A DNA stretch of 64,000 nt from the NCBI GenBank assembly GCA_963727805.1, contig CAVSHF010000004.1, positions 1 through 64,000 of the forward strand, given 5' to 3'. The notes beneath the pieces are model-generated. The model was not told the origin of the DNA. It did not search any database and saw only the letters and a list, made by a program, of their open reading frames with translations. Below, in pieces: positions 1 to 3,234 of the stretch. The translations under genes were made by a program, and so were the position numbers. This stretch comes from an uncultured Nitrospiraceae bacterium (GTDB lineage Bacteria; Nitrospirota; Thermodesulfovibrionia; Thermodesulfovibrionales; Dissulfurispiraceae). Numbering within the stretch: position 1 is the stretch's first letter; every line of letters begins with the position of its first letter.

Positions 1-113
1 GCTTGCTATATTTAAGAAGGGTAGTGATGGCCATTTAAAAAGGCTATACTCTTTCTTGATTTGGAGCCAATTGGCGAGTTGGTTAAATCCGAACCAAAGA
101 AAGGAGTATAGCC

Positions 114-1370
114 ATGAATAAGATTAAAACAAAAAAGATTAAAGTAGTCAACGGACAAACCCTGATCGTGAGTGTTGATATGAGCAAAGACAAACATTTT
201 GGGTACTGGCGCTGTCCGGACGGAACCGATGTGAAGCCTTTTGCTTTCTGGAACAACGGCGGTGGTTTTCAAGAGTTCTGGAACCAAGTGTTGCATGCCA
301 AGAATCTCTATAATCTTGATAACATTGTGTTTGGATACGAATCTACTGGTTCGTTCGCAGAGCCTTTGGTGCATTTCATGCGCGCAAGAGGAGTTCATAT
401 GGTACAGGTTAACCCTATGCACACTAAGAGGGTGAAGGATTTGCAGGGCAATTCGCCGAATAAGACCGATCAGAAAGACCCGAAGGTCATTGCCGATATC
501 ATGGCTCTCGGCCACGCCCTGACAGTTGTGATACCGGAAGGTCCGGCTGCAGAGCTTCGGAGGCTCACACAGGCCAGGGAGAGGAGCAATGAGCGTTTTG
601 TGGCTTCAGTGAATCAACTCCACAGTCTGGTTGCGATCGTCTTCCCGGAATTCTTGCATGTCATGAAGGATATGAAAATATTAAGCTCCCGATATCTACT
701 TAAGCAGTGTCCGGCACCAAAGGATATTGTCGAGTATGGTCTTGATAATTTGACCAACACACTCAGAAAGATAAGCCGTGGAAAACTCAAGGAAGACCGT
801 GCTAAGGCCCTCTTTGAGGCTGCCCAAACATCTGTGGGCGTGACTGAAGGCATGGCAAGCATTATCCGTGAGATGCGAGAGCTTCTTGTTATCATGGATG
901 CAGCTGAGTCCTTTACCGAGAGTCTGGAAAAAGAGATGGCCTATTACCTGAAACAGATCCCATACAGTGATTCGATCCTGTCGATCAAGGGTATCAAGGA
1001 GGTCACAGCTGCCGGTCTTATTGGTGAGGTTGGTGATTTTCGTAAGTTTAGAACCCTCTCAGAGATTCTGAAGCTCGCTGGCCTGGACCTGTATGAGATC
1101 AGTTCGGGTAAACATCAGGGAAAACGGCGCATATCCAAGCGAGGCCGCCCACTTCTGCGTAAACTCTTGTTCTTTGCCGCACTCAATGCAGTTCGCCGAG
1201 GAGGAATAATGCATCATCCATATCAACAGTACCTCCAGCGTGGAATGCCCAAGATCAAAGCTTTGATCGCCGTTGCAAGGAAACTTCTTGGAATCATATT
1301 CGCCATCGTGCGTGATCAAAGCGTGTACAGAAAAGACTTCTCAATAACATTGTTACAGGAGGCCGCATAA
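114..1370 (+). CDS. IS110 family transposase/recombinase
   Basis: N-terminal DEDD RuvC-like motifs (VSVDMSK, YESTG, KTDQKD) and C-terminal motifs (SIKGI, AGLD, SSGK, ISKRGRPLLR, AVARKL). SD AAGGAG upstream. Confidence 0.95.
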   Translation: MNKIKTKKIKVVNGQTLIVSVDMSKDKHFGYWRCPDGTDVKPFAFWNNGGGFQEFWNQVLHAKNLYNLDNIVFGYESTGSFAEPLVHFMRARGVHMVQVNPMHTKRVKDLQGNSPNKTDQKDPKVIADIMALGHALTVVIPEGPAAELRRLTQARERSNERFVASVNQLHSLVAIVFPEFLHVMKDMKILSSRYLLKQCPAPKDIVEYGLDNLTNTLRKISRGKLKEDRAKALFEAAQTSVGVTEGMASIIREMRELLVIMDAAESFTESLEKEMAYYLKQIPYSDSILSIKGIKEVTAAGLIGEVGDFRKFRTLSEILKLAGLDLYEISSGKHQGKRRISKRGRPLLRKLLFFAALNAVRRGGIMHHPYQQYLQRGMPKIKALIAVARKLLGIIFAIVRDQSVYRKDFSITLLQEAA

Positions 1371-1390
1371 GTCATACTTTGGCGCATAGG

Positions 1391-1540
1391 GCGGGGAGAT
1401 TATCATCACAGACCCAAAGGCGGCTGAGCCGACCCTCATTCGTAGCATGCATAACTCCCCGCTTGCATCTTAGTCTCAATGAAGCAAGGTTAGGGCTCTG
1501 TAGAGACCCTCAAATCACCAGTGTTGGGCAAGGTGCTACA
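1391..1540 (+). ncRNA. Putative bridge/seek RNA of IS110 #1
   Basis: Two parallel stem-internal-loop-stem modules. The loops carry sequences matching the right flank (TCACAGAC) and the donor junction (AGCAAG, ACCAG). Confidence 0.7.
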
Positions 1541-1626
1541 TCAATTAAGCATAAGGAACATATAATGCGATATCCAATAAGTTCCCATAGAAGGGGAAGG
1601 TAAAGTACTTGACAATAATAAACCAG

Positions 1627-2890
1627 TCTGTGAGTGGACAGTCAGCATCTTTTGAGCCGCTGTAGTAATCAAAATGCGATACCCACGGTACACGTCAGTT
1701 TGAAGATATGCTCCCATGCTTTATCATCACACTCTACTGAACAACAGCCGATACATATTCTTGCTGGTTCTTTAAGACGTACCGAATCCTGTTTAACAGT
1801 TTCCTGGCAATTCGGACGATTGCATTGGTCTTCGGCATCTTCTTGCACAGTGTATGAAAAGTCATCAGCAGAGCTGGGTCTTTGCGTACCGCCACCCAGG
1901 AGCTCTCAATCAATATGCCACGAAGCTGAGCATTCCGTCTGTTGGTTATGCCGGTTTTCCGTTCCGTTTCCCCACTAGAATCCGTATCAGGAATAAGTCC
2001 GACGTAACTGCAAAGTTTGTCGAAATTCTTGAAACGACTGAGTTCATACAGTTCCGTAAGTAGTATCATGGCGGTCAGAGTACTAATCCCCGGCACGGTC
2101 TTCAGCAGGCGGACATTCTGCCGGTACTCATCCGAGTTGGCAAGGTTACGGATGCCACGGGTAATATCAGCAATTAGCTTCCGCATGTTATTGAGTTCCT
2201 CCAAATGAACTTTCAATGCAAAATTGCCGCTGGCCCGTTCCATCCTTATATCTTCAATCCACGTAATGAAGCGCTTGGACCAGTTACCGTTTGCCAGTTC
2301 TTCCGGTATTTGGATTCCGTAGAAATGCAATATAGACTTGATCTGGTTCTTACAGCGCGTCTGTTTCTTGACCATACTTTGTCGAGTTCTGATAAGGCTA
2401 CGGTCTTCCACCTTGGGACGGGAAGGAACATATATGCCCTCGATCTCTCCGCTTCGGAGACTTCTTGCCAGCTTGCGGCAGTCCACTCGGTCGGTTTTCT
2501 TTGTTCGCTCCTTGTCCTTTGTAGGCACATCGGCCGGATTGACTACAAGACACTGTACCCCATGTTCTTGCAGTCGATCGTGAATCCAGAAACCACAGTA
2601 GCCGGCTTCATAGACCGATTTGTATGACGCACCAGGAAAATTGCGTTTGAGATAATTCACCAATGTGTCCACCTCAGGGGGCTGCGTAAAGGTCTTATGT
2701 TCAAACGCATCCGTAAAAATACTAACGCTCCAACTCTTCTTGTGAACATCCATGCCGACATAAATCTGTTGACCCTTAAAATTAAGTTTGCTAATCTTAT
2801 TCATGACAAGTCCTCCTTCTTTCGGTTTGTTGATTCTCTCCAGATACAACATATCCGATCGGGGGACTTGTCTTCTACTTTTTAATCATA
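1627..2890 (-). mobile_element. IS110-family element #2, 3' non-coding region truncated by element #1
   Basis: TATGAT -10 box at its left end (2890-2885). Only about 107 nt of 3' non-coding sequence remain before element #1, with no terminal -35. Confidence 0.65.
1734..2804 (-). CDS. IS110 family transposase
   Basis: YVGMDVHK, YEAG, KTDRVD, TVPGIS, YVGLIP..SSGE, IARKL motifs. ATG at 2804 follows an AGGAGG SD. Confidence 0.95.
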   Translation of the reverse strand: MNKISKLNFKGQQIYVGMDVHKKSWSVSIFTDAFEHKTFTQPPEVDTLVNYLKRNFPGASYKSVYEAGYCGFWIHDRLQEHGVQCLVVNPADVPTKDKERTKKTDRVDCRKLARSLRSGEIEGIYVPSRPKVEDRSLIRTRQSMVKKQTRCKNQIKSILHFYGIQIPEELANGNWSKRFITWIEDIRMERASGNFALKVHLEELNNMRKLIADITRGIRNLANSDEYRQNVRLLKTVPGISTLTAMILLTELYELSRFKNFDKLCSYVGLIPDTDSSGETERKTGITNRRNAQLRGILIESSWVAVRKDPALLMTFHTLCKKMPKTNAIVRIARKLLNRIRYVLKNQQEYVSAVVQ

Positions 2891-3234
2891 GGGTCTGTGA
2901 GAACATGCTGGCCGTATATAGAGAAAATTCTATTAAGCAAAATGTTTGTTACGTGCAGCTAAGCTCTAGTTTGCTTGATCAACTTTTCTCTATAAACTGC
3001 CCGCATGTTCTCTTAGTAATTATTTCGAAAAGGTATCCTGAATACACTGAAGTATATAAGTGGTAATCATCGGGGTTCGCTCAAAATTCGACAAGAAGAC
3101 CGCAATTACAAGCCGTCAGCCAAATGAGGATTACTCGGTAAATTATCCATACGTGCATGTCTGATGATCTGCATTATGGCAAACTGCCTCCATTCATGAT
3201 ATTATTGAGTTAAACAATTCATTATGAGGTAGCT

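Follow-up and report, generated by a model that had tools for sequence, protein, structure and literature searches.

The closest described relatives of the locus reported here are the IS110-family element IS621 (PMC11208160, PMC13626964) and the seekRNA elements ISEc11, ISKpn4, ISPa11 and ISPst6 of the IS1111 family (PMC11187229). As described in these sources, IS621 combines a DEDD and serine recombinase with an RNA whose two internal loops read the target and donor strands around a shared core dinucleotide, and the IS1111 elements carry a non-coding region 3' of the transposase. The guides of the IS1111-family seekRNAs were reported in 2024 to be ordered with the complement of the top strand 5' of the match to the bottom strand (PMC11187229), and the same source lists IS110 members outside IS1111 that also have a 3' non-coding region. 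The window, i.e., the whole stretch of 64,000 nucleotides analysed, is the start of contig C4 of a 3.9-Mb genome assembly (G000) and opens with an IS110-family element (element 1, window 1-1626) with a 418-aa recombinase and core AG, in which the features named above for IS621 and for the IS1111 elements are present at the level of sequence. Its guide order is that of the IS1111-family seekRNAs (1406-1413 before 1439-1445); a sequence-only reading of this DNA had pointed to a reverse-complement guide placed 5' of the same-sense guide, which is correct as to the order, although the order is the published one and not new.

In the recombinase of element 1 both PF01548 and PF02371 score above their cut-offs and NF033542 reaches 196.9 bits against a cut-off of 140. 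Residues D22, E76, D119, D122 and S331 align with the catalytic motifs of IS621 (alignment to 8wt6), and the two parts by which the IS110 family is recognised, a DEDD RuvC-like domain and a C-terminal Tnp domain with the catalytic serine, are both present. The best plasmid relatives of the transposase, all of them IS110 transposases, show 31-35% identity. Non-coding sequence amounts to 113 bases at the left end and 256 bases at the right end, the latter containing the RNA. AG is found at both junctions of element 1 and a single AG in the empty allele, as for a shared core. Joining the ends over one AG yields TTGACA-17 bases-TATATT, a sequence match only, which supports the assignment of the ends. 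Among assembled contigs of DNA runs no circle joint was listed, an observation that carries no weight as evidence. A search for sub-terminal inverted repeats in element 1 gave 8 of 12 bases as the best ungapped match, and at most 6 of 12 near the canonical offsets.

Table 1 Features of element 1, its predicted RNA, the invaded host element (element 2) and a third IS110 element; positions refer to the window unless a contig is named
Feature	Position	Strand	Basis or remark
Left end of element 1	1-113	+	Same left end in relatives
G of AG core; right-donor arm CTTGCT	1; 2-7	+	Element 1 left end
TATATT	7-12	+	-10 box of predicted circle-junction promoter, element 1 left end
IS110-family recombinase, 418 aa	114-1370	+	PF01548 and PF02371
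Predicted target-binding module (module 1)	1391-1462	+	Consensus fold, pair counts
Module 1 outer stem, GCGGGGAG / CTCCCCGC	1391-1398 / 1455-1462	+	Motif check
TCACAGAC	1406-1413	+	Module 1 loop, guide stretch
Right-target guide TCACAGA; C opposite core G; CC	1406-1412; 1413; 1414-1415	+	
CGGCTGAGCCG	1421-1431	+	Hairpin of module 1
Left-target guide TTCGTAG	1439-1445	+	Same sense as left flank plus core
Predicted donor-binding module (module 2)	1465-1536	+	Conserved together with element ends
Module 2 outer stem, GCATCTT / AAGGTGC	1465-1471 / 1530-1536	+	Motif check
Right-donor guide AGCAAG	1483-1488	+	Matches left end CTTGCT (2-7)
CTCTGTAGAG	1496-1505	+	Hairpin of module 2
Left-donor guide ACCAG	1517-1521	+	Equals right end ACCAG (1622-1626)
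Right end of element 1	1609-1626	+	-35 box TTGACA (1609-1614); left-donor arm ACC; core AG (1625-1626)
5' part of host predicted bridge-RNA gene	1627-1690	-	Cut off from remaining RNA gene
Host left-target guide CTCACAGA	1627-1634	-	Guides follow host family's flanks
Host right-target guide TTTGATTAC	1665-1673	-	Guides follow host family's flanks
Host RNA stem GTGGGTATC	1678-1686	-	Consensus fold of 11 host RNAs
Host IS110-family recombinase, 372 aa	1734-2852	-	PF01548/PF02371, NF033542 searches
Host left end and left junction CTCACA-GACCCT	2853-2901	-	Sequence
Third IS110, two copies	G000:C3:1103444-1105069; C5:439794-441420		L006, L017 neighbourhood

Within the right end of element 1, 21 bases past the recombinase stop, lies a predicted two-module bridge/seek RNA gene (1391-1536), the guide segments of which (left and right, target and donor) are named here following PMC11208160. 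The motifs on which a bridge-type RNA had been proposed at this place were all found in the window where they had been located. Folded as a single sequence, 1388-1540 gives a modest result (z -2.0; 5 of 200 shuffles equally good) with the loops partly closed. The consensus fold of ten sequences, this RNA and nine relatives, has two modules with open loops, and 93.8% of its cells are paired, compared with 36-53% in slid controls. Six of 41 pairs carry changes on both sides, a score reached by none of 500 shuffles in a control that ignores kinship. Rfam returned no relevant match; one weak, irrelevant match fell outside the RNA. Three RNA runs contained 0.05-0.09 of the sequence words. The right-target guide TCACAGA (1406-1412) is complementary to TCTGTGA at 1627-1633, and TTCGTAG (1439-1445) matches the left flank over 7/7 bases in both other copies of the element and in the empty allele. 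A same-sense target guide had been predicted and is present, at a length of seven bases and not five.

Relatives of element 1 were collected from genome contigs (5 loci), from 8 of 300 other genomes of the phylum and from 12 of 389 of the class. Covariation was scored on a single site for each distinct guide, and 23 of the 24 loci given were parsed. Left guides matched left flanks at 55 of 70 bases (14 guides; permutation mean 19.8). For the 17 right guides the matches were 63/119 in a fixed register (permutation mean 38.4) and 83/119 with two registers allowed (mean 49.1). None of 20,000 permutations reached the observed matches, tests that overstate the covariation because the relatives are kin. 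The right-guide register slides by 1-2 bases between lineages, and several guides match poorly at both scored registers; a single fixed register for all relatives, fitted earlier on eight sites with L013 left out, was rejected, since it suits only part of the family. Loop-flank covariation across homologues, the check that the sequence-only reading had named, is thus found for both target guides, and the donor guides match the conserved ends. These guides are nearly constant across the relatives, as are the ends, and in L099/L101 the left-donor guide and the right end have changed alike from ACCAG to ACAAG.

The window begins at the first base of its contig, and its own left flank is therefore missing. 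Two further copies of element 1 exist in G000, on contigs C3 (99.9%) and C5 (97.5%), both with the left flank ..GGGTTCGTA|G (also written ..GTGGGTTCGTA|G). An empty allele, GTGGG-TTCGT-AG-TCTGTGA-G, was found at G000:C5:1262-1281 on the minus strand; it continues into 1,269 bases without a single difference from window 1627-2895. The left flank predicted earlier (..TA then G) is seen in both other copies and in the empty allele, and the AG core and the target ..TAG|TCTGTGA foreseen with it agree with the TTCGT-AG-TCTGTGA of that allele and with the covariation in relatives. Empty allele and guide-flank covariation together support the bridge-type reading of the predicted RNA. With the AG core required, the 14-base target occurs once exactly in the 3.9-Mb assembly, twice at up to one mismatch and 12 times at up to two. 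The other site within one mismatch is unoccupied, and all three copies of element 1 in the genome sit at the same base of the host element, two of them (C3, C5) without the predicted right flank immediately after the core. The contigs with the empty (C5:1-1269) and the filled (window 1627-2895) sequence both begin exactly at element ends, and they may represent a single locus in two allelic states or separate host copies. Excision does not regenerate the target in CazIS110-1, as described in 10.1101/2025.10.25.684509, and by this analogy the empty allele is more probably a site that was never invaded than the scar of an excision. The C5 copy of element 1 (G000:C5:438094-439721, L017) is a mosaic with no differences in bases 1-394 and about 39 after; run X1 carries the same variant letters at bases 395-518 of element 1.

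To the right of element 1, the window continues with the right end of another IS110 element (element 2, the host), whose family is present in 10 of 300 other genomes; the intact allele of its RNA gene is G000:C5:1160-1447. In the predicted host RNA, a variable stretch complementary to the right flank is followed by a hairpin, a variable stretch equal to the left flank and a donor module. Element 1 interrupts this gene at the CT that follows immediately on the host left-target guide. Of the two target guides of element 1, the right one matches the host guide (TCACAGA) and the left one the adjoining scaffold (ACGAA). The target of element 1, as predicted from these matches, is the left-target guide plus scaffold of another IS110's predicted bridge RNA. 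A reading of CTCACAGACCC as a host terminal repeat was rejected, since in host relatives this sequence is made up of the left flank and the left end and is what the host guide matches.

The same nesting was found outside this genome. When metagenome contigs were scanned for the left junction, eight matches were obtained, two of them true (L049 and L055); the other six, without likeness to element 1 or host, were chance matches. At L049 an invader (77% aa) sits as a simple insertion at the identical base of a host (80% aa). Here the host guide, the host left flank and the invader right guide all read ACATAGA, two changes away from TCACAGA, so that the invader guide matches the host guide 7/7; the left guide TTCGTAG is unchanged. 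One of the two changed positions belongs to a column 91% conserved among 11 host RNAs. L055 holds an 89% aa invader fragment whose left junction is identical. Public runs X2 and X5 contain the right end of element 1 joined, at that very base, to a host copy with a likeness of about 89%; the loose ends at the junction are 28 and 141 bases long, and only X5 has at least 31 bases on both sides. Contigs from X3 and X4 stop at the insertion base. Among 401 genomes the junction pattern is exact only in G000, with one-mismatch matches in L056 and L057, and viral contigs yielded neither a relative of element 1 nor the junction. At L029:1259-1266 (runs X2, X3, X5) a 299-base stretch replaces the host left-target guide region and is a further insertion at the same host guide.

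Most relatives of element 1 target other sites. None of the others with readable flanks lies inside a host RNA gene (16 loci by blastn, the rest by eye), and the nested state requires two changes on a quick tree, a single origin being possible. The nearest relative with known context (G489, 82% aa) has the guides TGCGGAG and CCTGATA, and no host RNA was found beside any of its four copies. These loci (L090, L102, L104, L105) have a longer right end and sites like TGCGG-AG-TAGAAGG/TATCAGG, and three of their four right flanks match the right guide less well than the fourth. In L002, L007, L011 and L013 the targeted sites are short palindromic repeats (CGCAGAG/CGCAAAG type); on inspection by eye, the gene that follows L002 resembles the start of what we take to be a GxxExxY-type protein. 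A motif-rich segment, GGTATCAGGATATGG.. ATCGATCCTGGGGCATTTGTGAG, recurs within the right ends of both element families (L001, L004, L021, L024, L025, L034, L039, L090) and is possibly a small passenger element. In L032 (G197:C60), a host-family right end is followed at once by a left end that lacks TAGA-G..TATG; this head-to-tail arrangement is unlike a clean circle junction.

The guides of element 1 match a 14-base site in the predicted bridge-RNA gene of a second IS110, and since all copies in G000 lie in that gene at the guide-matched site, we consider it probable that element 1 is a site-specific parasite that disables the host element. The joint change of both guides in the distant pair suggests, as judged from these sequences, one mobile element tracking and disabling another; this tracking is based on two distinct guide pairs, those of this genome and L049. 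That there are only two such pairs, and that a closer relative (82%) targets elsewhere, speaks against dedicated parasitism.

By analogy with IS621 (PMC11208160, PMC13626964), ISEc11 (PMC11187229) and CazIS110-1 (10.1101/2025.10.25.684509), as far as these sources describe them, element 1 would form a circle whose joined ends make the promoter TTGACA-17-TATATT, and the RNA would be transcribed from the right end. Module 2 would read the circle junction ACC-AG-CTTGCT and module 1 the target TTCGT-AG-TCTGTGA, with the recombinase exchanging strands at AG. One half of the target is the constant scaffold of the host (read by TTCGTAG) and the other the host's own left-target guide (read by TCACAGA). 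Insertion would part the host target loop from the donor loop, leave no full host bridge RNA and thus disable the host in cis. A change of the host guide would amount to escape unless the invader guide changed too, as it has in L049. A guide-against-guide arms race, in which the invader tracks the rival guide, the rival transposase is deleted through a second register and the donor guide has become, by convergence, the target of an unrelated IS110, is conceivable and we put it forward only tentatively; half of the invader's reading would then face a constant scaffold and half a programmable guide, and the rival could escape only by retargeting, with the invader following.

The C3 and C5 copies have a different right junction, ACC-AG-GG-TCTGTGAG (also written ACC-AG-GGTCTGTGAG), followed by unrelated DNA, and their outer flanks differ. 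In both, the right end of element 1 is joined to the host left junction with the crossover within AG, and the host transposase is absent. The host left junction reads AG-GG-TCTGTGA on the + strand (2890-2900) and is a second site with which the element 1 guide can pair: as the host guide copies the host left flank, the invader right guide also matches here, and 1406-1415 pair 10/10 with GGGTCTGTGA. The deletion may have been RNA-guided, half-match recombination having been reported for IS621 (10.64898/2026.08.31.748434, in the part available). Other possible routes are homologous recombination involving a pair of inserted copies, the one on C5 being mosaic, and slippage where a host left-end variant and the right end of element 1 are alike in 10 of 11 bases. 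A truncated host-family copy at G000:C5:277244-277516 has a left end like the right end of element 1 over 10/11 bases, a feature that could be natural variation or the scar of a recombination event.

A third IS110, of about 1,620 bases and unrelated architecture, sits on C3 and C5 in the host left-donor guide, 73 bases from the element 1 insertion. Its two copies are 100% alike inside, and their junctions differ by an extra AG. CTCATAG, found in its long left end, is identical to the element's left flank; CTCATAG, TTGAGAG and GGCGT match its flank and ends. A similar left end follows the same motif in run X5. Beside the host left junction, window 2899-3012 is a palindromic repeat with look-alikes elsewhere in the genome and a weak match to RF02625 (Rfam), below cut-off.

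The composite junctions raise the question of whether the RNA prefers the 2-base-longer site TTCGT-AG-GG-TCTGTGA, element 1 actively replacing or deleting the host transposase via the host left junction and the junction in the window being an intermediate. We regard this as rather unlikely, in spite of the 10 contiguous pairs with UCACAGACCC at AG-GG-TCTGTGA and the fact that two of the three copies (C3, C5) carry the composite junction with its crossover within the AG core. The register of -3 that it implies lies outside the -4 to -6 range of relatives, G000 has neither an empty site nor a pre-existing transposase-less host of the longer form, and L049 is a simple insertion. CC at 1414-1415, where most relatives differ, the variation of register among relatives and the half-match recombination described for IS621 (10.64898/2026.08.31.748434, part of the text) speak for the longer site; still, the deletion is explicable by homologous recombination (C5 mosaic) or by the 10/11-base look-alike (C5:277244), and the two composites may derive from one event.

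That the nesting is a mere by-product is, in our judgement, improbable. Element 1 would then be an ordinary bridge element with drifting guides that finds its best match in a same-sense copy of a shared chromosomal target, with no selection for disabling the host. Relatives of both families do share chromosomal targets, e.g., ACTTCAG-flanked sites, nested cases are rare in the sets searched and the 82% relative (G489) targets elsewhere. Against this, the left guide matches host scaffold bases outside the host's chromosomal target and is identical in the 77% relative (L049), in which the right guide has moved with the host guide at two positions; in addition, G000 has one further site within one mismatch, and it is unoccupied. 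Parasitism of the host RNA gene remains our preferred reading. The view that the loops are no guide RNA, their matches arising by chance or from a DNA-level structure of the ends, is very improbable: the guides are only 5-8 bases long, the single-sequence fold has a z of -2.0 and Rfam holds no relevant match, but loops covary with flanks across 14-17 distinct guides, stems show compensatory changes, the left flank was correctly predicted blind and the layout is the same as in published seekRNAs. We are highly confident that 1391-1536 is a real bridge RNA gene.

The RNA of element 1 offers an unusually well-supported target, an AG core and a compact two-module layout in the right end without the IS1111 repeats, and may, judging by its sequence, serve as an additional programmable scaffold. 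Selection on IS110 elements to strike one another's guide genes, if it exists, would be a direct selective force for guide change. In that case the locus, surprising above all in its target, would also provide bridge systems with a natural off-switch and offer a testable example of a single guide that reads a site at two spacings.

By the family tests that sequence allows, element 1 is predicted to work like a bridge/seekRNA IS110 element. A promoter at the joined ends and natural retargeting among relatives are common to it and to the IS1111 seekRNA elements, as these are described in PMC11187229. Unlike them, it has two look-alike internal-loop modules, targets another IS110's RNA gene and lacks their near-perfect sub-terminal inverted repeats, which are 11-13 bp long and lie some 7 and 3 bp inside the ends. 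Assignment to IS1111 was rejected on account of these missing repeats, even though the long 3' non-coding region and the guide order are those of that family. The narrow, IS621-like IS110 group does not fit either, as the RNA is not in the left end and the same-sense guide does not come 5'. Compared with IS621, element 1 has its RNA in the right end, a reversed guide order, AG instead of CT as core, right guides that do not pair fully across the core, and a recombinase of weak sequence likeness (E 6e-7, 8wt6).

Site-specific insertion into mobile elements has precedents in IS4321/IS5075 (Tn21 inverted repeats), IS1383 (IS1384 inverted repeats) and ISEc21 (IS3-family transposase codons; PMC11187229), as far as the accessible parts of the sources describe them. 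The insertion point of element 1 would, like theirs, harm the target mobile element; their targets are fixed ends or codons, whereas half of the target of element 1 is the programmable guide of its IS110 host. ISPpu9/MITEPpu9 (PMC12288879) resemble element 1 in the AG core and in composite, transposase-less modules from alternative end pairings, and the available portion of that paper makes no mention of targeting another element's guide RNA. Full-text searches covering the main texts of mostly open-access papers brought up no case of an IS110 directed at the guide-RNA gene of another, and neither did a term search of the accessible text of 10.64898/2026.08.14.744561. The RNA of element 1 thus belongs to a described class, and the new part is its target, the predicted bridge-RNA gene of another IS110.
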